Positions 1-46,097 are shown, counted from the first letter of the stretch. The stretch: DNA of 53,850 nucleotides from Gammaproteobacteria bacterium (GCA_965658385.1 CBFHRY010000003.1:1743-55592); one strand, 5' to 3'. Program-made: numbers and translations. The notes: generated from the sequence alone by a model not told the origin.

Positions 1-75
1 GCATTACAAGCATTTATTTTTATGGCGTTAACCATTGCTTATTTGGCAATGGCGCATGAAACCGAGGAACATTAG
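1..75 (+). CDS. atpB: F0F1 ATP synthase subunit a, C-terminal fragment (5' end lies outside the window)
   Basis: Frame 1 reads ALQAFIFMALTIAYLAMAHETEEH-stop. This is a hydrophobic C-terminus directly upstream of atpE in canonical operon order. Confidence 0.8.
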   Translation, partial: ALQAFIFMALTIAYLAMAHETEEH

Positions 76-89
76 TCCTCAAAATATAG

Positions 90-320
<231 letters not shown>

Positions 321-338
321 GAGAGTAGAAATTAGAAG

Positions 339-809
339 ATGAACATTAACGCAACCTTACTTGCACAAGCAGTAGTTTTTGTAATTTTTGTGGTTATATG
401 CATGAAATATGTCTATCCACAAATACTGGCTGTTATGCAAGAAAGAGAAAAGAGAATATCAGACGGTTTAGAGGCAGCCAAAAAAGCAGACGACTCACTT
501 GAAGAGGCTAAACTAGCCTCAGATAAAGAGTTAAACAAAGCCAAAGAAGAGGCGGCTGATATATTAAAGAAAGCAAATGCTCGAGCTTCTCAAATTGTTG
601 CCGATGCATCTAACAAAGCAGAGGCGGAAGCAGAAAAAATCATGACAGCAGCATCTGCAAGTGTTGAAAACGAAACCAACAGAGCTAAAGAAGAGTTAAG
701 ACAACAAATGTCAGACATTATTATTGATACTACAGAAAAAATTCTCGGGGATGAGATTTCATCTGAAAAACACAATGACATTCTGAAAAAGGCTGCACAG
801 GAGCTTTAA
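339..809 (+). CDS. atpF: F0F1 ATP synthase subunit b
   Basis: 156 aa with an N-terminal TM helix and a long charged coiled coil. Operon position fits. Confidence 0.9.
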   Translation: MNINATLLAQAVVFVIFVVICMKYVYPQILAVMQEREKRISDGLEAAKKADDSLEEAKLASDKELNKAKEEAADILKKANARASQIVADASNKAEAEAEKIMTAASASVENETNRAKEELRQQMSDIIIDTTEKILGDEISSEKHNDILKKAAQEL

Positions 810-1345
810 TGATTGAATTAACACCCTTAGCAAGACCATACGCAAAAGCAATATTTGCTGCTGCTTTGGATGACAACAGCCTGGAAGAAACATCTAATGA
901 ACTTCACACAATTACACTAGCAACCAGTTCTCCTGAGGTAACTAGTGCAATTGAAGACCCTAAAATGTCCAGAAAACAAGTTGTCGATTTGCTAATGGAG
1001 CTCTTCAGTAAAGAGGTATCTCAAAAATCTGAAAGGCTATTATTAATTCTTGCAGAGAACAAAAGATTAAATCTTCTTGAGACAATCCATCAACTATACG
1101 TTGAACTGGTGCAGGACCACAAAAGTCAAAAATCAATAGAGGTTTTTGTGGCCTCTGACCCAAGCGAAGACGCCAAAGAAAAAATAGAAACCAAGCTTTA
1201 TGCTTCTTATGGTGATGACGCTAAAATAACTTTTTTAAAAGACCCAAAAATGATGGGCGGCCTAACTATTAAGGTGGGCGACGAAACACTAGACCTTTCC
1301 ATAAAAGGAAAAGTCAACAAACTTGTAAACCAATTAAATTTTTAA
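809..1345 (+). CDS. atpH: F0F1 ATP synthase subunit delta
   Basis: 178 aa. ATGA start/stop overlap with atpF. OSCP/delta-like ARPYAKAIF N-terminus. Confidence 0.9.
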   Translation: MIELTPLARPYAKAIFAAALDDNSLEETSNELHTITLATSSPEVTSAIEDPKMSRKQVVDLLMELFSKEVSQKSERLLLILAENKRLNLLETIHQLYVELVQDHKSQKSIEVFVASDPSEDAKEKIETKLYASYGDDAKITFLKDPKMMGGLTIKVGDETLDLSIKGKVNKLVNQLNF

Positions 1346-1354
1346 GGTGAAAAT

Positions 1355-2899
1355 ATGAGTCAACTAAATCCATCAGAAATATCCAGCGTTTTAAAAGAAA
1401 AAATAGCTGGCTTGGATCTTTCAGCTGAAAGAAAAAACGAGGGCATTATTGTCAGCGTTTCAGACGGTATCGTAAGAATACATGGCATGGGCGATGTTAT
1501 GTATGGTGAGGTTATTGAATTTGAAAATGGCACAAAAGGCATGGCGTTAAACCTAGAACAAGATTCGGTTGGTGCTGTTGTGCTGGGTGATTACCTTGGT
1601 TTGGTTGAGGGACAGAAAGCCGTTTGTACAGGTAAGGTTTTAGAGGTTCCTGTTGGAGAGGGTCTATTAGGAAGGGTGGTAAATACACTTGGAACACCTA
1701 TTGATGGTAAGGGAGAAATTAAAGCACAAGGCACATCTCCTGTAGAAGTGGTTGCCCCTGGTGTTATCGCCAGACAGTCTGTTGATCAACCGGTTCAAAT
1801 TGGACTAAAAGCTGTTGATGCAATGGTGCCTATTGGTAGAGGCCAAAGGGAGTTAATCATCGGCGACAGACAAACAGGTAAAACAGCTGTTGCTATCGAC
1901 GCTATTATTAACCAAAAAGGAACAGGTATTAAATGTATCTATGTTGCTATTGGCCAAAAACAATCAACAGTTGCTAACGTTGTCAGGAAGCTTGAAGAGC
2001 ATGGAGCTATGGAGCACACAATTGTTGTTTCTGCTACTGCAGCCGATCCTGCGCCAATGCAATATTTGTCTGCTTATTCTGGTTGCGCAATGGGAGAATA
2101 TTTTAGAGACAGGGGAGAAGATGCTCTTATTGTTTACGATGATCTTTCAAAACAGGCTGTTGCATACAGACAGGTATCTTTACTATTAAAAAGGCCCCCT
2201 GGAAGGGAAGCATATCCTGGTGATGTGTTTTATCTACACTCAAGATTATTAGAGAGAGCTGCGCGGGTAAACGCAGAATATGTTGAACAAGTAACAGGTG
2301 GAGAGGTTAAAGGCAAAACAGGCTCCTTAACAGCACTGCCAATAATTGAAACCCTTGCCGGCGACGTTTCTGCTTTTGTTCCAACAAACGTAATTTCTAT
2401 TACTGACGGACAGATTTATTTAGAAACAGAGCTATTTAACTCAGGTGTTAGACCTGCGATTAACCCAGGCTTATCAGTATCAAGGGTTGGCGGATCTGCG
2501 CAAACAAAAATAATGAAAAAACTAGCTGGTGGCGTTAGAACAGCCTTAGCTCAATATAGAGAGTTAGCAGCATTCTCACAGTTTGCGTCTGATTTAGATG
2601 ACGCAACCAAACAGCAACTTGCAAACGGTAAGGCGTTTACAGAACTACTCAAACAAAAACAATATGCTCCAATGAGCGTTGCTCAACAAGCACTAAGTCT
2701 TTATGCAGCTGACAGAGGCTACATGGCAGATGTTGATGTTGAAAAAATATTAGATTTTGAGACAGCATTGCACGGATATTTAACCTCTGAGAAGGGTGAG
2801 CTTGAAGAGCAAATCAATACAACAGGTGATTGGAATGATGATATTGAGAATCAGTTTAAAGAACTTGTTGAAGACTTCAAAAAGACACAAACTTTTTAA
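1355..2899 (+). CDS. atpA: F0F1 ATP synthase subunit alpha
   Basis: 514 aa. Walker A GDRQTGKT and highly conserved alpha-subunit sequence throughout. Confidence 0.98.
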
Positions 2900-2906
2900 T
2901 TAGAAA

Positions 2907-3767
2907 ATGGCCAATACAAAAGAAGTAAGAAAACAGATTGCGAGTATAAAAAGCACGCAAAAAATCACTTCAGCTATGGAGATGGTTGCTGCTTCTAAAA
3001 TGAAAAAAACCCAGGACAGTATGTTCGAGGGAAGGCCGTACTCACAAAAAATAAAAGAAGTTATTTCACATATTGCTATGGCTAGCTCTGAATATAATCA
3101 TCCTTTTTATGAAGAGAGAAAGCCCAAGAAAGCTTGTTTTATAGTTATCTCATCAGACAAAGGTTTGTGCGGAGGCTTAAACATAAACCTATTCAAACAG
3201 GTTATTGCTAAATCTGCAGAATTGGATGCCCAAGGCATAGAATCTTGTTTTGCGCTTGTCGGCACAAAAGCATCTGGGTTCTTTAAGTCAGTTGGCGGCC
3301 AGGTTGTTGCTGTAACAGAAAAGCTTGGCGACAAACCAAACCCCGATGATCTGATTGGCTTCACAAAGGTTGTTTTAGATATGCATAAAAATGGAGACAT
3401 TGATGAGGCATACCTGTGCTCAAATAGTTTTGTAAACACAATGACACAACAACCAAAAGTAGAGCAATTAATTCCACTTTCACCAGAAGAAATAGATGGA
3501 CCAAAAACACACTGGGATTACATTTACGAACCTGAAGCAAAGGTTTTGTTAGATGGCTTACTAACAAGATACATAGAATCACTTGTCTATCAGGCTGTGG
3601 TTGAAAATAACGCATGCGAACAAGCGGCCAAAATGATTGCAATGAAAAATGCAACCGATAACGCGGGTGACTTAATCAAAGAATTAGAACTTTTATACAA
3701 CAACGTAAGACAAGCGGCTATCACTCAAGAGCTCTCAGAGATAGTCGGCGGCGCAGCTGCAGTTTAA
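2907..3767 (+). CDS. atpG: F0F1 ATP synthase subunit gamma
   Basis: 286 aa. [15 protein letters not shown]-terminus and [18 protein letters not shown]-terminus are typical of gamma. Confidence 0.97.
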
Positions 3768-5177
<1,410 letters not shown>

Positions 5178-5179
5178 AT

Positions 5180-5593
5180 ATGAGCACCATTAAGATCAAC
5201 ATAGTTTCTTCAAGTGAAGAGATTTATTCCGGAGAAGGAACTATGGTTTATGCCACTGGCTCACTTGGTGAGATTGGTATAGCTCCTGGTCATACGCCTC
5301 TACTAACAGGCCTAGCAGCAGGTCCGGTAAGGGTTGTTAATGGTGAAAAAGAAGAAGCATTTTTTTGCTCAGGAGGCTTCTTAGAAGTTCAACCAGATCT
5401 AGTAACTGTTTTATCAGACACAGCTGAGCGAGCTGAAAACTTAGATGAGGCAGAGGCAATTAAAGCAAAAGAGGCCGCTGAGAAAGATCTAGCAAATCAA
5501 GATGCCTCTTTAGACTACGCTAAAGCGTCTGCGCAGCTAGCCGAAGCAGTAGCAAGACTCAAAACAATTCAAAAACTTCGTAAAAAGCAGTAA
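5180..5593 (+). CDS. atpC: F0F1 ATP synthase subunit epsilon
   Basis: 137 aa. Operon position and a beta-sandwich plus helical hairpin pattern. Confidence 0.93.
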   Translation: MSTIKINIVSSSEEIYSGEGTMVYATGSLGEIGIAPGHTPLLTGLAAGPVRVVNGEKEEAFFCSGGFLEVQPDLVTVLSDTAERAENLDEAEAIKAKEAAEKDLANQDASLDYAKASAQLAEAVARLKTIQKLRKKQ

Positions 5594-5624
5594 TATAAGT
5601 ATTAATTTTAAACATTAAATTAAT

Positions 5625-6983
5625 GTGAATATACATACTATTATTCTTGCTGCTGGCGAAGGCACAAGAATGAACTCTAATCGTGCCAAGTCTCTACAAA
5701 CAGTAGGCGGCACTTCTATGTTAGAGAAAATATGCAGAACAGCAGGAAAAATTAGCAAAGACATAACCTTAATTGTTGGTTTTGACAAAGAATCAATTAT
5801 TAATGAGGCTAATACTTTTGCTGAATTAAATATCACAACCAGCCTTCAGCCCAAGCCAATAGGCACTGGCGATGCTGTAAAGTGTGGGTTGGACAAAGTC
5901 AACTCAGGCTCAAAAGTTTTGGTTCTATATGGCGACGTTCCATTAATCAAAAAAGCAACCCTAGACAATCTTATCGCAGAATCAAGCGAGGGCGCATCAA
6001 TCTTGACTACCACCCTAGAGGATCCTTTTGGCTATGGCAGAGTTAAAAAAACAGAGAACGGTTTTGCAACTGCTGTAATAGAAGAGAAAGATGCGGATAG
6101 CGATGAAAAGAAGATCAAAGAAGTATTTACCGGCGTTTTATGTGCTGAGAAAGAGCTCTTAGAAACAAGCCTTCAAGAAGTTACAAACAATAACGCAGCA
6201 AATGAATTTTACTTAACCGACATAGTTTCTATAATGAGTTCTAAGGGGGTAAATATTAATACCTACATTTCTTCAAATGAGGAAGTTCAAGGCGCTAATA
6301 ACAAAAAAGAGTTAGAAAAACTTGAGAGCATATATAGATCAATGAAAACAGAGGAATTATTTAACCAAGGCATAACTATTGTAGATGCCAAAAGACTTGA
6401 TGTTCGGGGCGAGGTTAAGGCTGGCAAAGACTGCTTGATAGATGTAAATGTAATTTTAGAGGGAGATATCACGCTTGGAAACAATGTGTCTATAGGCCCA
6501 AATACAATTTTGAAGGATGTAGAGGTTGGTGATGGCACCAAAATAGAAGCTTTCTCTCACATAGTAAATGCAAAAATTGGTGACAACTGCTCAATAGGAC
6601 CATATGCAAGACTAAGAGAGGGCAGCAGAATAGAAGATTCTGGAAAAGTAGGCAATTTTGTAGAAACAAAAAATAGCACACTTGGTAGTGGCTCAAAAGC
6701 TAACCATTTTACCTATTTAGGTGATACAACAGTTGGTACTAAAACAAATATTGGGGCCGGCACAATAACTTGCAACTATGACGGCAAAAACAAACATAAG
6801 ACCATAGTTGGTGATAATAGCTTCATAGGCAGCAACTCTTCTTTGGTGGCACCGGTGAAAATAGGAAATAACACCACCATTGCAGCCGGATCAACAATAA
6901 CCAAAGATGTTCCAAGCGATGCCCTTGGTGTTGGCAGGTCAAAACAAACAAATAAAGACAATTGGTCTAAGAAAAAAGGATAA
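5625..6983 (+). CDS. glmU: bifunctional UDP-N-acetylglucosamine pyrophosphorylase / glucosamine-1-phosphate N-acetyltransferase
   Basis: GTG start. ILAAGEGTRM nucleotidyltransferase motif and C-terminal left-handed beta-helix hexapeptide repeats. Sits upstream of glmS. Confidence 0.95.
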   Translation: MNIHTIILAAGEGTRMNSNRAKSLQTVGGTSMLEKICRTAGKISKDITLIVGFDKESIINEANTFAELNITTSLQPKPIGTGDAVKCGLDKVNSGSKVLVLYGDVPLIKKATLDNLIAESSEGASILTTTLEDPFGYGRVKKTENGFATAVIEEKDADSDEKKIKEVFTGVLCAEKELLETSLQEVTNNNAANEFYLTDIVSIMSSKGVNINTYISSNEEVQGANNKKELEKLESIYRSMKTEELFNQGITIVDAKRLDVRGEVKAGKDCLIDVNVILEGDITLGNNVSIGPNTILKDVEVGDGTKIEAFSHIVNAKIGDNCSIGPYARLREGSRIEDSGKVGNFVETKNSTLGSGSKANHFTYLGDTTVGTKTNIGAGTITCNYDGKNKHKTIVGDNSFIGSNSSLVAPVKIGNNTTIAAGSTITKDVPSDALGVGRSKQTNKDNWSKKKG

Positions 6984-6986
6984 AAA

Positions 6987-8813
6987 ATGTGCGGCATTAT
7001 TGCAGCTGCCTCTAACAGGCATGTAGGAAAATTATTAGTCCAAGGACTTCATAAAATGGAGTATCGAGGATATGACTCAGCAGGCATCGCTCTTCATCAA
7101 AATGAGAGCATAGCCCACCTTAGAGCCCTTGGAAAAGTTCAGCTTCTAGAAGAAAAAATGATTGCTGAAAAACCAAAAAGCAAATTAGGTATTGCTCATA
7201 CAAGATGGGCAACTCATGGGGAGCCATCAGAGACTAATGCTCATCCCCACAAATCTCAAGATTCTGTTTATATTGTTCATAACGGCATTATTGAAAATTA
7301 TGTTGAGCTTAAAGAAGACCTTAAGAAAGATGGCTATGAATTTATATCTCAAACAGATTCAGAGCTAATCGCCCATTTGCTTGATTTATATATTAACCAA
7401 GGCCAGTCAATGATAGACGCAATGTATTCAGCAAAAGAAAAACTCGAGGGCGCATATGCGATAGCAGCTATTGATATAAAAGATAGCACTAATTTGGTTA
7501 TAGCAAGAAACAAATCACCTCTATTAATAGGAGTTGGAACCGATGAAATGTTTGCAGCCTCAGATCCTCTTGCTATAGCACAACAAACCAATGATTTTAT
7601 TTTTTTAGAAGATGGTGATGTAGCAGAGATTTCTGCCAATAGTTACAAAATATTTGATGATTCTAAAAACGAAGCCAAAAGAGAAATCACACATATAGAT
7701 ATTTCAGCTCAAGCAACCTCAAAGGGTGATTACAGGCACTATATGGAAAAAGAAATATACGAACAACCTGAGGCTGTTTCAAAAACAATAGACGGAAGAA
7801 TAGGCGGCGAGGACGTTCTAGATAATATTTTTGGCTTGGGTTCTACCGAACTATTCTCAAAAGTAAAACGCATTCAAATGGTTGCTTGCGGAACAAGTCT
7901 TCATGCAGGAAGAGTTGCTGCAAATTGGTTTTCATCAATAGCCGATCTTCCATGCCAAGTTGATTATGCAAGTGAGTATAGATATAGAAATCCCCATGTA
8001 GATAAAAACTCATTATTAATTACCATTTCTCAATCAGGCGAAACAGCTGATACTTTGGCTGCCTTAAACTACGCAAAAGAAAAAGACTATCTTTCTACTC
8101 TTGCTATCTGCAATGTTCCCACGAGCTCTTTAGCTAGAGAGTCAGACTTTTCACTGTTTACCAACGCAGGCCCGGAAATAGGCGTTGCTTCAACCAAAGC
8201 TTTTACAACCCAGCTTGCAGGATTAATGTTGCTTGCATTATCACTGGCAAAAAGCAGAGGGCTAAACCCAAAACTCAGGGGAAGAATAGTCCAGGCGTTA
8301 AGATCGCTCCCAGTGACTATCGAAGAAGCCCTTAACCTAAAAGAACAAATGGTTGAAATAGCACCAAATATTGCTAACAAAGATAATGCTTTATTTTTAG
8401 GTAGAGGTATTTTTTATCCTATCGCCAAAGAAGGAGCATTAAAGCTTAAAGAGATTTCTTACATCCATGCAGAAGCTTACCCTGCTGGCGAGCTAAAACA
8501 TGGCCCACTTGCATTAATAGATGAAAATATGCCGGTTATAGCATTAGCGCCTGAAAGCGAAATTGCAGAAAAACTAATTTCTAATTTAGAAGAAGTGAAG
8601 GCAAGAGGTGGAACCCTTTATGTCTGCGCCGATCCTTCGGTAAACATGGATGTTAAGTCTGGCAAATTAGTTCACATGCCTGATTGTGATTTCTTTATGA
8701 CACCAATTGTTTATAACATTCCATTGCAAATTCTTTCATACGAAGTTGCACTTCTAAGAGGAACAGACATTGATCAGCCAAGGAACTTAGCCAAGTCAGT
8801 GACGGTGGAATAG
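6987..8813 (+). CDS. glmS: glutamine--fructose-6-phosphate aminotransferase (isomerizing)
   Basis: MCGI N-terminal nucleophile Cys, two SIS domains, and the canonical C-terminus LAKSVTVE-stop. Confidence 0.98.
   Translation: MCGIIAAASNRHVGKLLVQGLHKMEYRGYDSAGIALHQNESIAHLRALGKVQLLEEKMIAEKPKSKLGIAHTRWATHGEPSETNAHPHKSQDSVYIVHNGIIENYVELKEDLKKDGYEFISQTDSELIAHLLDLYINQGQSMIDAMYSAKEKLEGAYAIAAIDIKDSTNLVIARNKSPLLIGVGTDEMFAASDPLAIAQQTNDFIFLEDGDVAEISANSYKIFDDSKNEAKREITHIDISAQATSKGDYRHYMEKEIYEQPEAVSKTIDGRIGGEDVLDNIFGLGSTELFSKVKRIQMVACGTSLHAGRVAANWFSSIADLPCQVDYASEYRYRNPHVDKNSLLITISQSGETADTLAALNYAKEKDYLSTLAICNVPTSSLARESDFSLFTNAGPEIGVASTKAFTTQLAGLMLLALSLAKSRGLNPKLRGRIVQALRSLPVTIEEALNLKEQMVEIAPNIANKDNALFLGRGIFYPIAKEGALKLKEISYIHAEAYPAGELKHGPLALIDENMPVIALAPESEIAEKLISNLEEVKARGGTLYVCADPSVNMDVKSGKLVHMPDCDFFMTPIVYNIPLQILSYEVALLRGTDIDQPRNLAKSVTVE
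8795..8813 (+). repeat. core repeat R0 (gtcagtgacggtggaatag), the authentic glmS 3' end
   Basis: First of four direct copies of a 19-nt core. The others are at 9617, 10411 and 10675. Encodes S-V-T-V-E-stop. Confidence 0.9.
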
Positions 8814-8827
8814 TTTCGTTTGCAGAA

Positions 8828-9046
8828 TTAAGTCTTAGGCAGTTTAAATAAATCTTCAACTTTACAATTAAAAATCTTTGATATTTTTAATGCTAGAACG
8901 GTTGAGGGTACATAAATCCCATTTTCAATAGCATTGATACTTTTTCTTGAAACATCTGTTTTATTTGAAAGTTCTTGTTGAGTTAGACCTGCATTTTTTC
9001 TGTATTGCTCAAGATTGTTTAGGAGTTTGTGATGATTTTTACCCAT
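8828..9046 (-). CDS. small XRE-family helix-turn-helix transcriptional regulator (copy A)
   Basis: 72 aa from the ATG at 9046 (the ORF track extends to 9067). HTH_3-like LTQQELSNKTDVSRKSINAIENG. 59/72 residues identical to copy B by hand alignment. Overlaps the upstream gene by 8 nt (ATGGGTAA). Confidence 0.85.
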   Translation of the reverse strand: MGKNHHKLLNNLEQYRKNAGLTQQELSNKTDVSRKSINAIENGIYVPSTVLALKISKIFNCKVEDLFKLPKT

Positions 9047-9464
9047 GTTGGGATTCTCGATAATCACCTATTGCAAACCATATTAAAAGCACTCCAAAAA
9101 TTAACCAAGCATAAGCAGCAATTTGTAAAATCATATTTGATGCGATTTGGATATCCCAGTTTTGGTAATCTTGAATGCTAAATATTATAAATAAACCTAT
9201 GCCGTTAAGTGCGTACCCTAAATTGCCTAATCTATAAAATCTATCTGCTGCATATTCGTCATAAAGTTTATTATTTATTCCTTCTTTACCATAGTAATAA
9301 GATATTACTAAAACAATAGACGTTAAAATTATAAGTATTCCAGGTATGAACATTAGATTAGATGGAAGTTGTAATATACCTAAATCAAATAAAAGATGAA
9401 TTGCAAAAAAGACTTGTACGACTCCACATAAAAATAACATTAAAAAACGTGTATAAAAATTCAT
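9039..9464 (-). CDS. multi-pass membrane protein of unknown function, partner of the HTH regulator
   Basis: 141 aa with about 4 predicted TM helices and a charged central loop (LYDEYAADRFYR). Translationally coupled to the HTH gene. Confidence 0.7.
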   Translation of the reverse strand: MNFYTRFLMLFLCGVVQVFFAIHLLFDLGILQLPSNLMFIPGILIILTSIVLVISYYYGKEGINNKLYDEYAADRFYRLGNLGYALNGIGLFIIFSIQDYQNWDIQIASNMILQIAAYAWLIFGVLLIWFAIGDYRESQHG

Positions 9465-9492
9465 GGTTAGTTTATTTCCTTAATTAATTAAA

Positions 9493-9537
9493 TGTAACGT
9501 AAACTTATCACTATCTTAATGAGAAGTAAAGGTTACA
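9493..9537. promoter_or_regulatory. 45-nt imperfect palindrome (tgtaacgtaaactt N17 aagtaaaggttaca), candidate operator of the cassette A HTH regulator
   Basis: 14-nt arms matching 11/14, located 29-73 nt upstream of the membrane-gene start codon. Conserved with identical spacing in cassette B. Confidence 0.5.
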
Positions 9538-9616
9538 AGATAAATTATTGTATAATTCTTACGTGGACAAAAAATACATAAATTTCTACAAGAAATTTAT
9601 TCTGCAAACGAAAACA

Positions 9617-9635
9617 GTCAGTAACGGTGGAGTAG
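9617..9635 (+). repeat. core repeat R1 (gtcagtaacggtggagtag)
   Basis: 17/19 identical to R0. Both differences are third-codon-position changes in the frame S-V-T-V-E-stop. Sits in the loop of the 9597-9652 inverted repeat. Confidence 0.85.
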
Positions 9636-9649
9636 TTTCGTTTGCAGAA

Positions 9650-9868
9650 TTAATTATTTGGCAATCTAAATAAATCCTCTACCTTACATCCAAGAGTTTT
9701 AGAAATTTTTAAAGCAAGAACAGTAGAAGGGACATATATTCCGTTCTCAATTGCATTAATGCTTTTTCTAGAAACATCAGCACTCTCAGATAATTCCTGT
9801 TGAGTTAACCCTGCATTCTTACGAAGTTCCTCAAGATTGTTTAGAAGTTTTTTATGATCTTTGCCCAA
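9650..9868 (-). CDS. small XRE-family helix-turn-helix transcriptional regulator (copy B)
   Basis: 72 aa. Paralog of copy A (59/72 identical). Confidence 0.85.
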   Translation of the reverse strand: MGKDHKKLLNNLEELRKNAGLTQQELSESADVSRKSINAIENGIYVPSTVLALKISKTLGCKVEDLFRLPNN

Positions 9869-9870
9869 AA

Positions 9871-10266
9871 TTATTTCTTTTCGAAGTCTTCAACTGCATT
9901 TGTTAATTCTTCACTTGTGTTTGGGTAAAGATAACCAGCAATTATTTGTCCTAAACCAATAGCAGCAACTAATGCTCCAACACCTTTAAGCACTGAACCT
10001 AGAAAAAATACACCAAACAGAAAAAGACCCACACCAGTAAATAATGTAACAACCCCAGTTCTTCTATAATCAATTGGTTCTTTTTTTCTTTCATCAAGCA
10101 TGCCTATTAAGTCTTCGACTTTTGAAGGATCATCAATGTTTTTCGATATCTCCAATATTGTTCTATTCTTATCCTTGCTTTCAAAATATAACCAAACAAA
10201 GACAGATACAGGCACTATTATTCCTGTCATTATTCCTAATACCGGTATTAATATTTCAAGACCCAT
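9871..10266 (-). CDS. membrane protein of unknown function (3 predicted TM helices), partner of HTH copy B
   Basis: I place the start at the ATG at 10266 (MGLEILIPVLG...), which is preceded by GAGGAGAGGAAA. The ORF-track extension to 10401 would run through the conserved operator region. Confidence 0.7.
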   Translation of the reverse strand: MGLEILIPVLGIMTGIIVPVSVFVWLYFESKDKNRTILEISKNIDDPSKVEDLIGMLDERKKEPIDYRRTGVVTLFTGVGLFLFGVFFLGSVLKGVGALVAAIGLGQIIAGYLYPNTSEELTNAVEDFEKK

Positions 10267-10285
10267 TTTCCTCTCCTCACTAAAA

Positions 10286-10330
10286 TGTAACGCAAACTTA
10301 TCATTAATTATATGAGAAGTAAAGGTTACA
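10286..10330. promoter_or_regulatory. 45-nt imperfect palindrome (tgtaacgcaaactt N17 aagtaaaggttaca), candidate operator in cassette B
   Basis: Same arms and same 17-nt spacer length as the cassette A palindrome. Confidence 0.5.
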
Positions 10331-10410
10331 ATTAAAATCATTGTATAATTTTTTATATGGATAAAAAATATATAAATTTCTACAACAAATTTATTCTGCA
10401 AACGAAAACA

Positions 10411-10429
10411 CTCAATGACGGTGGAGTAG
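10411..10429 (+). repeat. core repeat R2 (ctcaatgacggtggagtag)
   Basis: In frame it reads S-M-T-V-E-stop. Immediately follows the right TIR of cassette B. Confidence 0.8.
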
Positions 10430-10674
10430 ATAAAGGTGTCTACATAATATGAGTAAAAAATTTAAAAATTCTGATAATGGCGGTAACTGGATTGGTGTTG
10501 GTACTGCGATAGGCGTAGCAGTTTTTGCCGCAACCAATGAACCAGTGTGGATAGCTGTAGGTGTTGCAATTGGAGCAGCGCTGGGTTGGCGAAAACCAAA
10601 AAATAAAGATGAAAAAGAAGCATCTTGATTTCTTGATTAAATTTTATAATCTAAAAAGTAGACAGTTAAATCTA
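10427..10674 (+). mobile_element. mini-cassette C: segment of about 245 bp with its own 17-nt imperfect TIRs and one 59-aa ORF
   Basis: tagataaaggtgtctac (10427-10443) versus gtagacagttaaatcta (10658-10674), 13/17 complementary including a perfect 7-mer tgtctac/gtagaca. Flanked by cores R2 and R3. Confidence 0.4.
10449..10628 (+). CDS. small glycine/alanine-rich membrane protein (59 aa), not in the supplied ORF track
   Basis: Hand translation: MSKKFKNSDNGGNWIGVGTAIGVAVFAATNEPVWIAVGVAIGAALGWRKPKNKDEKEAS-stop. Two short hydrophobic G/A-zipper segments and an AAAGG about 11 nt upstream of the ATG. Confidence 0.5.
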   Translation: MSKKFKNSDNGGNWIGVGTAIGVAVFAATNEPVWIAVGVAIGAALGWRKPKNKDEKEAS

Positions 10675-10693
10675 CTCAATGACAGTGGAATAA
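10675..10693 (+). repeat. core repeat R3 (ctcaatgacagtggaataa)
   Basis: In frame it reads S-M-T-V-E-stop (TAA). This is the most distal copy. Confidence 0.75.
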
Positions 10694-10717
10694 TTACGAT
10701 TAATGATATAGAAACGA

Positions 10718-11110
10718 ATGAATGAACTAAATAAACAAAACAAGATAATTACTTATATTTTTGAATTGGGACTCATTAAAAGCGTAAATGAGACTAGATG
10801 GTTTATGAGGGAAAATTCTTCTCCCTATGTTTTTAATTGCTCAGAACCCAAAACCATAAGATTTGAATGGTTTCTATCCGAAGATGAGAAGTCAGCAACA
10901 TTAATAGAAATGTTTGAAGATAGCGATGCTGCCAAACTAAGATTAGAAAATCACTCTGAAAGCCATCTTGTTAAAGAGTTTCCAGAATATTTTGAAATTA
11001 AGAACTTTATTGTTTTGGGCGATATTAAACCTGATATGAAGGATAAGTTAGCGGATTGGAATGCAGACTTAAGAGGAAATGTGGGTGGTTTTTTTAAAGG
11101 GCTAGATTAG
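10718..11110 (+). CDS. hypothetical protein, possibly ABM/Dabb-like ferredoxin fold
   Basis: 130-aa ORF. Only a weak resemblance to ABM-domain proteins (FEWFLSEDEKSATLIEMFEDSDAAKLRLENH), so the function is not supported beyond that. Confidence 0.55.
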   Translation: MNELNKQNKIITYIFELGLIKSVNETRWFMRENSSPYVFNCSEPKTIRFEWFLSEDEKSATLIEMFEDSDAAKLRLENHSESHLVKEFPEYFEIKNFIVLGDIKPDMKDKLADWNADLRGNVGGFFKGLD

Positions 11111-11184
11111 TAAAGGTTACACCAAATTTTTTTGCATACTCTGCAAAGTGAATTATGATATAGCCATATCAACTACATAAATCA

Positions 11185-12972
11185 ATGAACCGATTATTAT
11201 CTAGTTTTGTTCTGTTTATTCTTATTACAGCCTGCGGGGGTGGCTCAGGCTCGTCTTCAGAGCCAGCCCCAGTTCAGCCGCCAACCAACCCTTCAATACC
11301 CACTTTTAATTCATCGTCAAACTCTATATTTACAAATGAATCTATTGCAATAACTTGGAGTAGCAATAATGCAAGCACATGTATGGCTAGTGGCGACTGG
11401 GATGGCCAAAAAGCTTCTACTGGTAGTGAAAGCTTGCAGTTACAAGAAGCAAAAACTTATACATTTATACTAACCTGCTCTGGTGAAGTGGGCACACAAC
11501 CTGCCACAGCAAGCCTTGATGTTATTGTTATGGAGCCACCAGCACCAGCCCCAAAACTATCAAGTGTTTCATTTCTGTTAGAAGATAATAATCAGTTAGA
11601 AAATGATATTGCTCTTGAAGAACAGTCTGAGAGCGCTTTTTTTGGCAGAGTTCCTTTCAACATATCGCTAGATGGGCTTGCAGCAACCTATGAATTTATA
11701 GGCAGCAGCATTCAGATTAACGATGTTGAGCAAGAAAGTGGAATAACCAGAAACAATTTTACAGATATAGTAAATGTAAAAGTTTTGAACAAAGATGGCG
11801 ATAGCGAGACTTATCAAATTAACTTAACCAAATTTACCGGCTTGCCTATTGTGTACATAGAAACAGATGGATCAATGCAAATAGATTCAAAAGATGATTA
11901 TGTGCTTGGGGATACTAATATAGATGGCGGCAGGAATTATGAAAATTTTCCAAGCGCTTCCATGAAGATTAGAGGCAGGGGTAATTCCACTTGGGAGTTT
12001 CCGAAAAAACCCTTCCAAATGAAGCTGGACGATAAAGCAGAGTTTCTAGGAATGCCAAATGATAAGAAATGGCTCTTTCTAGCAGAATATACCGATAAAA
12101 CAATGCTTAGAAATACAATTGCTTTTGAGATGGGCTACATAAGCCATTTGGATTGGACTCCTGAGGCAGAATTTGCAGAGGTTTATATCAACGGTGATTA
12201 CAATGGTACTTACAACATAACTCAAAAAGTTGAAGAAGGTGATAACAGAGTTGCCATTGGTGACACCGGATATTTACTTGAGCTCGACCAATTAGAGAAT
12301 CTTGATTCAGACGATGTGTATTTTGAAAGCGCTGTAACAGAAAGGTTTATTATCAATATTAAAGAACCAAACCTAGATGCTGGATCAGATGAATTTGTAT
12401 ACATAGAAAATCTTATTACTAATTTTGAAAATAACTTGTTTAGCCAAAATTTTGCAGATGAGGCAACGGGATATAGGCAATATATAGATATGGAAAGTTT
12501 CATTGATTGGTTTTTGATTAGTGAGATAACAAAAAATGTTGATTCAATGTTTTTCTCAAGTATTTTTCTAAACGTTATGCCTGGAGAGAAAATAAAAATG
12601 GGGCCTTTATGGGATTTTGATTTATCTTTTGGCAATGTTGATTATGCAGATAGTCGATATCCTGAGGGATGGTGGGTTAAATACAACCCTTGGTACGAGC
12701 GCTTATTTGAAGACCCTGCGTTCGTTGAAGCAGTAAGAAATAGATTTGAATATTTTAATAACAACAGGGACTATATTCTAAATAAAATTGATACATATGC
12801 AGAAAAATTAAAATGGGCACAGGAAGAAAATGATGACAAATGGCAAACCATTGGTGTTTATGTTTGGCCTAACCCAGTTATATTTGATACTTATCAAGAA
12901 GAGGTTGATCATATGAAGGCATGGTATGAGACTAGGATGGATTGGCTAGAATCAGCTCTCGGTGATTTATAA
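11185..12972 (+). CDS. CotH kinase-family lipoprotein with an N-terminal Ig-like domain
   Basis: Lipobox LITAC followed by a G/S linker. Ig-like ITWSSNNASTCMASGDWDG motif. CotH-type motifs RGRGNSTWEFPKKPFQMKLD and PLWDFDLSFGN. Confidence 0.8.
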   Translation: MNRLLSSFVLFILITACGGGSGSSSEPAPVQPPTNPSIPTFNSSSNSIFTNESIAITWSSNNASTCMASGDWDGQKASTGSESLQLQEAKTYTFILTCSGEVGTQPATASLDVIVMEPPAPAPKLSSVSFLLEDNNQLENDIALEEQSESAFFGRVPFNISLDGLAATYEFIGSSIQINDVEQESGITRNNFTDIVNVKVLNKDGDSETYQINLTKFTGLPIVYIETDGSMQIDSKDDYVLGDTNIDGGRNYENFPSASMKIRGRGNSTWEFPKKPFQMKLDDKAEFLGMPNDKKWLFLAEYTDKTMLRNTIAFEMGYISHLDWTPEAEFAEVYINGDYNGTYNITQKVEEGDNRVAIGDTGYLLELDQLENLDSDDVYFESAVTERFIINIKEPNLDAGSDEFVYIENLITNFENNLFSQNFADEATGYRQYIDMESFIDWFLISEITKNVDSMFFSSIFLNVMPGEKIKMGPLWDFDLSFGNVDYADSRYPEGWWVKYNPWYERLFEDPAFVEAVRNRFEYFNNNRDYILNKIDTYAEKLKWAQEENDDKWQTIGVYVWPNPVIFDTYQEEVDHMKAWYETRMDWLESALGDL

Positions 12973-13012
12973 TTTAGAATCAATTTAAGCATAACAATTT
13001 GAGGTTATATAC

Positions 13013-13375
13013 ATGGTTACATTTATTTCATTAGCATTACTTTTATATCTTATTCAACTAATTTTGCCGAATGCATTAAAGGCTGGAACGGGTTATGCAA
13101 AAAGGGCGGGTAAAGCGCTTAAAAATTTAAGCGAATCTTTGCCTGTTTATCTGACTTTAGCAATCCTATCAATTGTTTTAAGTGTTGATGAAAATACAAT
13201 GCTTGCCCTTTACTGGTTAATAGCCAGATTAATATTTGCAGTTATATACGTCTTAGGGCTTGGTCTTGATAATAAGTCTAAAGAGTCACAGGGCCCTGAC
13301 AGACAACCACTCCGATCTTTTGTCTGGGCTGGATCAATAGTTATATTGATTGCAATGACCTCAAATCTATTTTAG
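13013..13375 (+). CDS. MAPEG-family-like small membrane protein
   Basis: 120 aa with 3-4 TM helices. Size and layout resemble MAPEG; the assignment is tentative. Confidence 0.55.
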   Translation: MVTFISLALLLYLIQLILPNALKAGTGYAKRAGKALKNLSESLPVYLTLAILSIVLSVDENTMLALYWLIARLIFAVIYVLGLGLDNKSKESQGPDRQPLRSFVWAGSIVILIAMTSNLF

Positions 13376-15586: not shown

Positions 15587-16021
15587 ATGAAAAAATCAAT
15601 AGTAGCTTTTTTAGCAATAGTTTCTTTTGGCGCAAATACCTCATCCATTGAGCAAGATGGATGCTCAACAAAACTTAAACAAGTTATGAGACCAGAGTAT
15701 CCAGCTGTAAAAATTAGTGGTTATGCCATAGTAAATTTCGATATTAAGACTGATGGTGGGGTTGAAAATATTAAGTCTCACAAATCAATGTGTCTTAGAC
15801 ATAACAGAAAAGATAATACATATAATTTTAAAAGCTGTGGCGTCTTTATTTCAAAAGCAATTGCTGCAACGCCTTACATAGAATTTAGGCCGCCTATAGA
15901 TATAAATGGAAATGCATGCACCATTAAAAATAAAAAACATCTTTATAGATTTATGGCAAACAAAAATGAAAAAGTTAGGGCTGCTTTTGCAGAAGAACTA
16001 GATAAAATTGAAGAAAGCTAA
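15587..16021 (+). CDS. secreted protein with a TonB C-terminal-like domain
   Basis: Signal peptide. RPEYPAVKISGYAIVNFDIKTDGGVENIKS resembles the TonB_C consensus. ATG overlaps the FMO stop codon. Confidence 0.5.
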   Translation: MKKSIVAFLAIVSFGANTSSIEQDGCSTKLKQVMRPEYPAVKISGYAIVNFDIKTDGGVENIKSHKSMCLRHNRKDNTYNFKSCGVFISKAIAATPYIEFRPPIDINGNACTIKNKKHLYRFMANKNEKVRAAFAEELDKIEES

Positions 16022-17322
16022 AACGAATTTTTGTGAAAATCAATTATTGCTGAATCAACAAGTGCATCGGTCTTTTTAAGTTCCTGATACAAATTAACCG
16101 AGCCAAGAGTTTTGCATCTACTCAACGCTACATATGTTTGGCCAGTTGCAAAAGCCCCTTGGCCTAAGTCGATTGAGCAACTTTCTAAGGTAAGCCCTTG
16201 GGCCTTATGAATAGTTACAGCCCAACCTAGTTTTATTGGAAATTGGCGATATGAAGAAACTATCTCTTCTTCCATCTCATCATCATAATCATCATAAATA
16301 TATCTGATCTTATTCCATTCTTCTCTCTTAACATTTAATGTTTTTCCATCAACTTCAACCTTTATGGTTTTTCTCTTTTTATCTTTGCAATCAATAACCT
16401 TACCAACCGTTCCATTTACCCATCTACCCTCGCTATCATTTTTAATAAACATTACTTTTGCACCTTCTTTAATCCTTAAGTTTCTTGGTGCAGGAAGCTC
16501 ACTTTCTTTTAGCTCTCCAAGCTCCTCCGCTTTTGCTGAGGTTGCAGGCCCATCAATTGTGTTGAGCATTTCTTCATTTATTTGATCTGCTCTATAGCGC
16601 CTTGATGTTACTATCAAAGCAGATTCTTCGTAATTAGAAGGGTTAAAGCAGGCCCCATTAATTTTATTAATTGTTTTTTCTAAATCATTTCCAAGACGAA
16701 TATTGTTGAGCAGCTCATAAAAGTCACTGTCATCACTTTGTCTAAATGAATAGGTAAGTTCATAAAAAGACGGACTCTTAATCTCTTTAAAGCTCTTTGA
16801 GCTAAAAAAGTATATTGATTCGTACTTTTCGTATATTGCTTGTTCTTCATCTTCTTTTACCACAGGCGGCAGTTGAAACAAGTCCCCACATGCAAGAATA
16901 TGGATTCCACCAAATGGTTCATCAGAATTTCTATGCAATTTTAGAGTTTCAGATATTGCATCAAGCATAGGCGCTCTTACCATTGATATTTCGTCAATGA
17001 TCAATAGCTCAAGATTTCTTAACAGTTTTTTAAAGCGCGGATCATTTGACTCTGTAATCACAGGAAAAGTATCAAAGCCAATTCTAAACGCTGAATTAAT
17101 AGTAGCTCCTCCAATGTTTAAAGCTGCTATACCGGTAGGAGCAACAACAATTTTTTTAAGATCATTCTCTTCTATTATTTTTTTAACTAAGGTAGTTTTT
17201 CCAGTGCCAGCAGCTCCAGTAAGATAAACAAATTTTTGTGCAGCATCAGGCTGAAACATTTGATTTATTTCCTCAAAATAGTCATCAAAATTTGTTTTAT
17301 CTGAGTTATGAATTTTTGCCAT
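16018..17322 (-). CDS. PIF1/RecD-like superfamily 1 DNA helicase
   Basis: Walker A GAAGTGKT, Walker B LLIIDEISMV, CGDLFQLPPV, and C-terminal TIHKAQGLT / YVALSRC motifs. Confidence 0.85.
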   Translation of the reverse strand: MAKIHNSDKTNFDDYFEEINQMFQPDAAQKFVYLTGAAGTGKTTLVKKIIEENDLKKIVVAPTGIAALNIGGATINSAFRIGFDTFPVITESNDPRFKKLLRNLELLIIDEISMVRAPMLDAISETLKLHRNSDEPFGGIHILACGDLFQLPPVVKEDEEQAIYEKYESIYFFSSKSFKEIKSPSFYELTYSFRQSDDSDFYELLNNIRLGNDLEKTINKINGACFNPSNYEESALIVTSRRYRADQINEEMLNTIDGPATSAKAEELGELKESELPAPRNLRIKEGAKVMFIKNDSEGRWVNGTVGKVIDCKDKKRKTIKVEVDGKTLNVKREEWNKIRYIYDDYDDEMEEEIVSSYRQFPIKLGWAVTIHKAQGLTLESCSIDLGQGAFATGQTYVALSRCKTLGSVNLYQELKKTDALVDSAIIDFHKNSF

Positions 17323-45623: not shown

Positions 45624-45713
45624 AAAAATATCTAAATTAGATATACTTTAGATAATTCATATCATTTATTTTCTGTTAACTTTAAGTAAATAGATCCAAT
45701 TGAGGTGATTATC

Positions 45714-46097
45714 ATGAACATGAAAGAAGCAGTAATTTCAGTATTATCAAACTGGAATAATTTTAGTGGCAGAGCTTGTAGAAGTGAGTTTTGGTATTTT
45801 GTTTTGGCCTCAACTTTGCTTGGATTTGTTGTTGGAATAATTGAGGCAGCAACGGGCCTGATTGATTTTGAAGATCCAAGCTCAACTGGCCCCCTTTCAA
45901 TAATATTAAATATTTTGTTATTAGTGCCTAGTCTTGCCGTCACTTCAAGACGCTTACAAGATTATGGATTTTCTGGATGGTGGCAACTTTCCTATATTAC
46001 AGTGATTGGTTTTGTTGTTGTTCTTGTCTGGTGCATGCTTCCAGCAAAAGAAGATGAGAATCAATGGGGAAAAAACCCTTTGCTTGATCTTAAATAA
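45714..46097 (+). CDS. DUF805 family inner-membrane protein
   Basis: GRACRSEFWYF and RRLQDYGFSGWW motifs. The ATG at 45714 follows GAGG; the ORF track begins at the GTG at 45705. Confidence 0.8.
   Translation: MNMKEAVISVLSNWNNFSGRACRSEFWYFVLASTLLGFVVGIIEAATGLIDFEDPSSTGPLSIILNILLLVPSLAVTSRRLQDYGFSGWWQLSYITVIGFVVVLVWCMLPAKEDENQWGKNPLLDLK

Follow-up and report, generated by a model that had tools for sequence, protein, structure and literature searches.

Tandem gene cassettes at the 3' end of glmS in SAR86 bacteria, a probable product of site-specific recombination

SAR86 bacteria are among the most abundant of the surface ocean; they are uncultured and genome-streamlined, and how they acquire flexible genes is poorly understood. 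Here we ask why the end of glmS recurs several times, in frame, downstream of the gene in a stretch of 53,850 nt of gammaproteobacterial DNA (GCA_965658385.1, CBFHRY010000003.1:1743-55592; 36% G+C), hereafter the window. A GlmS search with one genome per species returned around 45 SAR86 loci with flanks, and we therefore assign the window, by sequence similarity, to a SAR86 gammaproteobacterium; loci used for comparison carry L numbers. No record with a GlmS sequence identical to that of the window was retrieved. The repeats separate small gene cassettes, and we consider it very probable that the array was built by site-specific recombination. That a serine recombinase acted as helper in trans is included in a narrower claim, which we favour with moderate confidence.

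The last 19 nt of glmS, hereafter the core, occur at 8795-8813, 9617-9635, 10411-10429 and 10675-10693 (R0 to R3), always on the + strand. A degenerate 19-mer derived from these copies matched exactly four times in 53.8 kb, against 0.03 matches expected from shuffled sequences. Read in the glmS frame, the four cores encode S-V/M-T-V-E-stop and differ at third codon positions, with GTG to ATG as the sole exception. Cassettes 1 and 2, which are paralogous (78-89% identity in their common parts), are bounded by 18-nt inverted ends, TTTCGTTTGCAGAATTAA / TTTATTCTGCAAACGAAA, and cassette 3 has its own inverted pair, overlapping the ends of cores R2 and R3. The family of cassette 3 and its arms were also found in L006, L018, L021, L022, L026, L029 and L030. 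The four copies, and the discrete cassettes with inverted-repeat ends between them, had been described in the original prediction, made from the sequence of the window, and both were recovered here, with inverted pairs for all three cassettes.

We scanned the SAR86 loci with the codon pattern TCNGTNACNGTNGARTAR, allowing up to one mismatch, and found two to nine cores in 32 of the 35 genomes having at least 1.5 kb downstream of glmS. Every copy was located downstream of glmS, all but one on the glmS strand, and core-to-core intervals had a median of 580 bp (range 168-6,325 bp). Exactly one core was found in 81 of 118 other glmS loci. A metagenome scan with the C-terminal half of GlmS returned mostly distant glmS genes, which were used as a negative control set. 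Further arrays were found in seven SAR86-like metagenome loci (L081-L086 and L089; 2-5 cores each) and, with the same arm families, in two gammaproteobacterial loci of 45-46% G+C, L050 and L136 (7 cores). As anticipated in the original prediction, relatives thus vary in copy number (from 1 to 9) and hold different cassettes.

In an unbiased search, the 18-nt glmS end of each locus was compared with its own surroundings, allowing up to four mismatches at any position. This yielded 59 matches downstream on the + strand versus 1, 1 and 1 in three control compartments, and the mismatches were concentrated at the six wobble positions (160, versus 26 at the twelve others, nine of the 26 being TAA to TGA). 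The nearly silent character of the differences, first noted from four copies, is stronger with more than 100.

To define the unit, we compared the flanks of the cores. The 22 nt after one core and the 22 nt before the next had a mean of 12.2 complementary matches, whereas the two flanks of a single core reached 9.4, versus 9.5 for random pairs. The arms therefore pair within a cassette and not across a core, so that the unit consists of a right arm, cargo and a left arm. For each unit we rebuilt a circle by joining the left arm, the left half of the following core, the right half of the preceding core and the right arm. In the rebuilt sites, a single axis of dyad symmetry passes through core position 7.5 (A7/C8), with a complementarity of 0.61 versus 0.33 for the next best axis; pairs -2:16, 1:14 and 2:13 are complementary in 90-99% of them, and the arms pair in the register -22..-5 with +18..+1. 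Position -2, which the search pattern left free, is an A in all 90 downstream copies, and the codon that holds it is often TAA, not Lys, in these copies; therefore, part of the core conservation is at the DNA level, in the form ANTC-N10-GANT. The original reading of the copies as coding termini thus holds for the coding bias but accounts for only part of the conservation. The chromosomal attachment site comprises the last six glmS codons plus the A two bases upstream.

The position of the exchange was located by a linkage test on pairs of sites from different places that had one flank in common and the other not. Wobble 1 was linked to the left flank (identity 0.87 versus a background of 0.36) and wobbles 5 and 6 to the right flank (0.88 and 0.71 versus 0.47 and 0.49), indicating that the cores are hybrids and that exchange is central, on the dyad axis. 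The crossover maps between core positions 6 and 9, with the axis between the invariant A7 and C8 and the inner wobbles partly linked to the flanks. An identical recombinase-bearing element was found joined to two host glmS alleles, as TCAGTCAC followed by GGTGGAGTAG and as TCCGTTAC followed by GGTGGAGTAG, which, on the sequences compared, we read as direct evidence of exchange between positions 6 and 9. Moreover, replacement-type changes in the 107 downstream cores number 25 in positions 1-8 and only 4 in positions 9-18 (p = 1e-4); the right halves also carry six harmless TAA to TGA changes, and among 48 glmS copies we found TGA variants only. This skew is predicted if only the incoming right half-core joins glmS. 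The original idea that each insertion brings a replacement terminus is thus right in principle, but what is replaced is the right half-core (positions 9-18, with the stop codon).

Comparison with relatives shows cassette turnover and, as judged from sequence identity, transfer between lineages. Similarity between the window and its closest relative, L001, whose glmS is 95% identical in DNA, breaks off after 8818, only 5 nt beyond the stop codon of glmS, and resumes at 10674, the first base of R3. Between these flanks L001 contains three unrelated cassettes and none of those of the window; beyond R3, both have one further unit in common, with a 130-aa open reading frame (ORF). The predicted breakpoints at cores in a relative were therefore found. 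Identity reaches 97% between cassette 2 and L030 6499-7311 and 95% between the XRE part of cassette 1 and L026 12744-12990, with glmS only 75% and 76% identical, respectively. The XRE cassette also varies in rank, heading the array in L028, taking the first two places in the window and coming third in L026.

The arrays contain 166 ORFs in 121 clusters, of which 127 ORFs are on the glmS strand and 39 on the opposite strand. Their co-orientation suggests that cassette genes may be expressed by read-through from glmS, as in integrons. Recognisable cargo includes nucleases (HNH-HIT, PD-(D/E)XK, EEP and T5orf172), a C5 DNA methylase, TetR regulators, fatty-acid desaturases, sulfotransferases, cadherin-like and ASCH proteins, DUF805 proteins and CAAX proteases.

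We propose that the array would consist of small non-autonomous gene cassettes added by conservative site-specific recombination at the last six glmS codons. A free cassette would be circular and carry one attP-like site, an imperfect palindrome of about 60 bp whose centre copies the glmS end (left arm, A-n-TC NGTNACNGTN GA-n-TAR, right arm). Its partner would be the glmS end or a core already in the array, and strands would be exchanged centrally in the core, at the invariant A7-C8 or beside it; both the circular form and the entry point of new cassettes are what we infer from the architecture of the integrated sites. After integration, the two arms of the cassette would become terminal inverted repeats and the core would be duplicated, with the incoming right half-core (..C NGT NGA RTA R) providing the new glmS end and stop codon. 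Lacking a recombinase, the cassettes would be moved in trans, and the likeliest enzyme would be a large serine recombinase carried by circles of 6.7-10 kb, with its own attP inside the recombinase gene. In its essentials, the insertion model of the original prediction is supported.

In the window, the cassette ORFs and the less obvious ones among the rest were compared with Pfam profiles, as were array and flank ORFs of around 50 loci; the remaining window ORFs were judged to be housekeeping genes by reading their translations, not by profile scan. No integrase, resolvase or transposase was found among array ORFs of at least 140 aa, large ORFs past the arrays or the less obvious window ORFs, and tblastn with serine-recombinase queries gave no match in the window. 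The stated lack of an integrase in the window is thus borne out as far as these searches go. Resolvase/Recombinase genes were likewise not found in the window or the SAR86 arrays, save fragments and one small resolvase in L083. By tblastn, the recombinase C-terminal domain was detected in SAR86 arrays at the expected ends in L020 and in L083, which has a degenerate recombinase element after glmS. A common first cassette of SAR86, found in long chromosome contigs, contains a TetR gene, a fatty-acid desaturase or hydroxylase gene and a recombinase C-terminal fragment.

Genes of around 120 aa homologous to this C-terminal (Recombinase-domain-like) module were seen in L398-L403, L014 and L020, with 72 clusters in SAR86, and they remain open reading frames down to 57% identity; they may encode a working DNA-binding protein and not be dead fragments.

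Full recombinases with the same core were found in marine elements. We scanned viral contigs for ANTCNGTNACNGTNGANTAA and ANTCNGTNACNGTNGANTAG and scored around 180 matches for arms on the SAR86 axis. In three matches, 16, 15 and 13 of the 18 pairs were complementary, as compared with at most 9 in all others, and each of the three sites falls within the gene for a large serine recombinase that has Resolvase, Recombinase and zinc-ribbon domains, around 120 codons short of the end of that gene (Table 1). In L341 and L323 the site is antisense, at around residue 595-600, where the reverse complement of S-V-T-V-E-stop encodes Y-S-T-V-T-E/D, and it is followed by a conserved domain of around 120 residues. 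In L347, a closed circle of 10,265 bp with a 703-aa recombinase, the site is sense-oriented and read in another frame. A search of the viral contigs for the main SAR86 arm family, with arm-plus-core patterns, gave zero matches.

Full-length homologues of these recombinases (around 695-730 aa) are encoded on circles or concatemers, such as L404, where a 9.87-kb unit with genes for a rolling-circle Rep, an HTH_17 protein and a small resolvase occurs three times. A short class, of around 565-616 aa, stops at the site; in L397 and L407, from Bacteroidota contexts, the short-class gene converges on glmS and overlaps its 3' end. The two length classes do not separate the forms strictly: L409 encodes a recombinase of 567 aa, in the short class, yet this gene lies on a free circle, where the C-terminal domain has an ORF of its own. 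Resolvase, Recombinase and zinc-ribbon domains are combined in one protein in L341, L323, L347, L404, L408 and L409 and not in the cassettes of the window, and the marine circular elements with the same core and axis measure 6.7-10 kb.

The element in L409 has 6.68 kb and 35% G+C and is present as units 1-6679 and 6680-13358, with circular permutations or concatemers also in L410-L420; its exact recombinase protein is found on 23 contigs, TARA samples among them. The site lies in a 131-aa ORF downstream of the recombinase gene, and the element also encodes a small resolvase. Its arms hold the SAR86 motif CTGTT / AACAG in the same register. On the SAR86 arm profile, the left arm scores 10.4, as compared with a SAR86 mean of 9.4 and a 99.9th percentile of 6.4 for random sequence; the right arm scores 4.2, the corresponding values being 5.2 and 6.9.

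An intact 9.6-kb recombinase element was found at glmS in L408 311-16200 (GCA_902532475.1, CACAIE010000024.1), a single-cell genome with 31% G+C, in the order glmS, core, C-terminal fragment, 9.6-kb element, 580-aa recombinase, core, C-terminal fragment and two cassettes. The system is thus not confined to SAR86; among the loci compared, the glmS of L408 best matches those of Sphingomonadaceae, at around 47% identity. Because they share the core and the axis, because SAR86 arrays contain C-terminal fragments and because the arms of L409 fit the SAR86 profile, serine recombinases of this marine glmS-end family are the best candidate helpers for SAR86. More broadly, SAR86 and apparently other marine plankton might possess an integron-like system that runs on a large serine recombinase in place of a tyrosine recombinase: mini-cassettes of one or two genes, each with a palindromic mimic of the glmS end, would be captured and shuffled behind glmS by an enzyme acting in trans, whose own gene is split on integration through the attP within it, a proposal that we hold tentatively, at slightly less than an even chance.

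Several observations weigh against a serine-recombinase helper. An intact large serine recombinase was found neither in the window nor in any SAR86 glmS locus examined. The 72 database homologues of the SAR86-type C-terminal fragment have only 58-180 aa, and a search for a full-length recombinase matching this fragment returned short proteins only. No integrated L409-type element was found, all 10 places returned being free circular forms. Recombination between attP and attL or attR is not performed by typical large serine integrases, and growth of the array needs this reaction or a similar one. As the arms belong to several sequence families, one enzyme could serve them all only if its recognition were loose or based on shape. 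Lastly, the middle wobbles (positions 6, 9 and 12) are weakly linked to either flank, which is not predicted by a clean 2-bp crossover and fits the 6-8 bp overlap of a tyrosine-type enzyme.

The same architecture could be the work of a chromosomal tyrosine recombinase, similar to integron integrases or to Xer, which perhaps reads a folded hairpin or cruciform. In its favour, the partial flank linkage of the inner wobbles is as expected from a 6-8 bp heteroduplex overlap, SAR86 arrays lack a serine recombinase, free recombination between any two cores, as in integrons, explains array growth more easily, and arm sequence varies between families while complementarity is kept. A junction between cassettes of one family also folds strongly: R1, which resembles a complete palindromic attP because both adjoining cassettes belong to one arm family, is predicted to form a stem of 15-20 bp with a 22-nt loop (z = -6.3 on one strand and -6.9 on the other). 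No hairpin potential was detected at R0 (z = 0.15) or R2 (z = 0.35), and a search of window 8600-11400 against Rfam gave no match, even at E = 1. Against this reading, no tyrosine recombinase was found in any array or flank examined, the arms are unlike attC boxes or dif, the conserved piece is central and not at the base of the stem, and elements that share the core and the axis rely on serine recombinases, fragments of whose genes are found in SAR86 arrays. We therefore regard a tyrosine recombinase as unlikely.

Alternatively, each cassette could be the deletion remnant of a once-autonomous recombinase element of 7-10 kb, none having moved individually. The C-terminal fragments at the expected end of some cassettes (L020, L398-L403), the degenerate element in L083 and the order of L408, a full element followed by shorter units, would all agree with such decay. 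It leaves unexplained, however, that cassettes of 264 bp and 800 bp with intact paired arms occupy differing array positions in many genomes, that cassette identity reaches 97% between hosts whose glmS is 75% identical, that the 121 clusters of cargo are unlike the gene set of autonomous elements, and that arms adjoin single small genes; we consider decay alone improbable.

Terminal inverted repeats within direct repeats are also the classic footprint of transposition, as would result from a transposon, or an element similar to miniature inverted-repeat transposable elements, inserting into the glmS end with a target-site duplication of 18-20 bp. Yet across genomes the upstream arm goes with the left half-core and the downstream arm with the right half-core, which excludes a target-site duplication, since a duplicated target would not travel with the element; in addition, the copies differ almost solely at wobbles and no transposase was found, making this origin very improbable. 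Local tandem duplication, gene conversion or an assembly artefact, with no mobile element, would fit the paralogy of cassettes 1 and 2 but is scarcely credible, given arrays with unrelated cargo in independent assemblies of around 45 genomes and breakpoints at cores relative to the closest relative; the artefact that the original prediction had named as a possible refutation is excluded by arrays in dozens of independent single-cell and metagenome assemblies.

Site-specific recombination at the glmS end thus remains our preferred explanation, and by analogy the logic of such an array has precedent in the composite islands of the staphylococcal cassette chromosome (SCC) and in additive tRNA islands. 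At rlmH (orfX), SCC and pseudo-SCC islands form tandem arrays with up to 6-8 site copies, and many of their units lack a recombinase and depend on one in trans (PMC3900703). As in SCC, which is moved by the Ccr large serine recombinases, the last codons of a housekeeping gene are targeted, a direct repeat that keeps the frame is found at the junctions, and the ends are inverted repeats. Conversely, the target is glmS and not rlmH, the host is a marine gammaproteobacterium, the SAR86 units have a median of 0.58 kb, often with one gene, as compared with 10-60 kb, and the SAR86 arrays lack a recombinase. Compared with the definition of SCC, the terminal-codon and inverted repeats are present, but no intact large serine recombinase gene was found in the units.

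The arrays resemble integrons in their many small, mostly single-gene, co-oriented cassettes with diverse cargo, in the palindromic site and in the lack of a recombinase of their own. Unlike in integrons, there is no intI beside the array (no Phage_integrase match in around 50 loci and the less obvious window ORFs), the arms lack the attC R/L boxes (RYYYAAC / GTTRRRY), the conserved centre copies coding sequence, and crossover at the centre of the palindrome splits the site over two cassette ends instead of leaving it whole at the 3' end. An identity with integron attC sites was ruled out by the arm sequences, as compared with the R/L consensus, and by the central crossover.

In streamlined Methylophilaceae, additive islands contain recurring copies of the last 20 bp of a tRNA-Lys gene between units of 330 bp to 42 kb (PMC10872708). 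Both are hotspots that grow by repeated integration and are marked by recurring 3' ends of the target gene between variable blocks, but at glmS the target is a protein-coding end and the repeats must also encode S-V-T-V-E-stop. As with SAR86, the hosts are streamlined plankton without classical mobile elements (10.1101/2020.12.28.424599); unlike tycheposons, which have their own, mostly tyrosine, integrase and target tRNA genes, the SAR86 units lack an integrase and target glmS. The candidate helpers recall the 'suicidal' integrases of the archaeal SSV (Sulfolobus spindle-shaped virus) type, in that the attP is inside the recombinase gene and integration would split the gene (around 700-730 versus 565-616 aa); however, SSV-type enzymes are tyrosine recombinases and, according to a review, exclusive to archaea (PMC8371274), whereas the candidate helpers are large serine recombinases of elements integrated in bacterial genomes.

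As with Tn7, the conserved 3' end of glmS serves as a safe landing site. Tn7, directed by TnsD, inserts around 23 bp past the glmS stop with a 5-bp duplication, carries tnsABCD and does not copy the glmS end; here, in contrast, no tns genes were found, the repeat has 18-20 bp and the junction falls within the coding end. Judged by eye against what is established for them, Tn7 and dif/Xer sites show no likeness to the core in sequence or arrangement and were rejected. In the literature, searches returned nothing relevant on an array in SAR86 or at glmS, nor on serine recombinases directed to glmS, with incomplete coverage that makes an earlier description possible. The glmS-end cassette array is thus apparently undescribed; the original remark that no described family with this combination was known stands for the glmS array itself and not for its logic, which SCC at rlmH and the tRNA islands precede.

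Nearly all sampled SAR86 species share a conserved hotspot of defined sequence, behind an essential gene, that holds hundreds of unrelated small genes, many of them for membrane peptides, offering a concrete and testable mechanism for gene gain and loss in SAR86. The search rule A-n-TCNGTNACNGTNGARTAR plus paired arms could be used to mine cassettes from metagenomes, and a serine-recombinase family with a short, highly conserved natural target might provide tools for genome engineering. An attP within the recombinase gene would carry the idea of a self-splitting integrase from archaea to bacterial elements.

Table 1. Coordinates of the glmS locus and its cassettes in the window, and of related recombinase sequences elsewhere
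Feature	Position	Strand	Remarks
atpD, atpC, glmU, then glmS			genes carried by the window
glmS	6987..8813	+	608 aa; ends KSVTVE-stop; orthologues from ~45 SAR86 genomes
Core R0	8794..8813	+	form A-n-TCNGTNACNGTNGARTAR; glmS/cassette 1 junction, attL-like, without left arm
Cassette 1	8804..9625		822 bp, crossover to crossover; XRE-type helix-turn-helix (HTH) gene and membrane protein gene
Cassette 1 right arm	8814..8831	+	TTTCGTTTGCAGAATTAA; inverted repeat, 94% complementary to 9596-9613
Cassette 1 XRE-type HTH gene	8828-9067	-	
Cassette 1 membrane protein gene	9039-9464	-	141 aa, no family
Cassette 1 left arm	9596..9613	+	TTTATTCTGCAAACGAAA; inverted-repeat partner of 8814..8831
Core R1	9616..9635	+	cassette 1/cassette 2 junction
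Cassette 2	9626..10419		794 bp; arms 9636-9653 and 10390-10407
Cassette 2 XRE HTH gene	9650-9868	-	
Cassette 2 DUF6249 membrane protein gene	9871-10266	-	
Core R2	10410..10429	+	S-M-T-V-E-stop; cassette 2/cassette 3 junction, two unrelated arms
Cassette 3	10420..10683		264 bp; own arms, in inverted pair 10424-10443 / 10658-10677
Cassette 3 glycine-zipper membrane peptide gene	10449-10628	+	59 aa
Core R3	10674..10693	+	S-M-T-V-E, TAA; last recognisable core in the window
Fourth unit	10684..11120		boundary approximate; 130-aa ORF 10718-11110; common to L001
Recombinase C-terminal domain fragment, L020	just left of core 14694	-	
Recombinase C-terminal domain fragment, L083	directly after glmS	+	followed by a 196-aa small resolvase
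Putative attP, L341	2725-2744	-	inside recombinase gene
Putative attP, L323	3976-3995	-	inside recombinase gene
Putative attP, L347	1490-1509	+	inside recombinase gene

The distal core of the fourth unit is lost in the window and degenerate in L001. A motif tgtaac...gtaaaggttaca is conserved 5' of the divergently placed genes of cassettes 1 and 2 (9488-9537 and 10286-10335) and could serve the XRE regulator as its operator. A partial third copy (11108-11137) and a degenerate left arm, ctctgcaaagtgaa (11139-11152), are found just 5' of a CotH gene, and may together be the remnant of a lost cassette. Homologues of the XRE/DUF6249 cassettes were also seen 2-9 kb downstream of glmS, far past the last recognisable core, in L002, L003, L007, L011, L014, L025 and L034; the flexible region therefore probably reaches further, with decayed cores. 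Some cassette ORFs end on the stop codon of a core, as does L034 3903-4658, which ends in NSVTVE-stop.

An element of a different kind was observed at the same place in L077 5060-5960 (Candidatus Beckwithbacteria), where the gene for an IS200-like Y1 transposase of 225 aa lies between two copies of the glmS end, around 55 bp long and 787 bp apart. In the window, a Pif1-like helicase gene, which is also found in L006, is located 5 kb past the array (16018-17322, - strand), and a chromosomal DUF805 gene (45705-46097, + strand) is similar to the cassette-borne DUF805 genes of L001 and L004.

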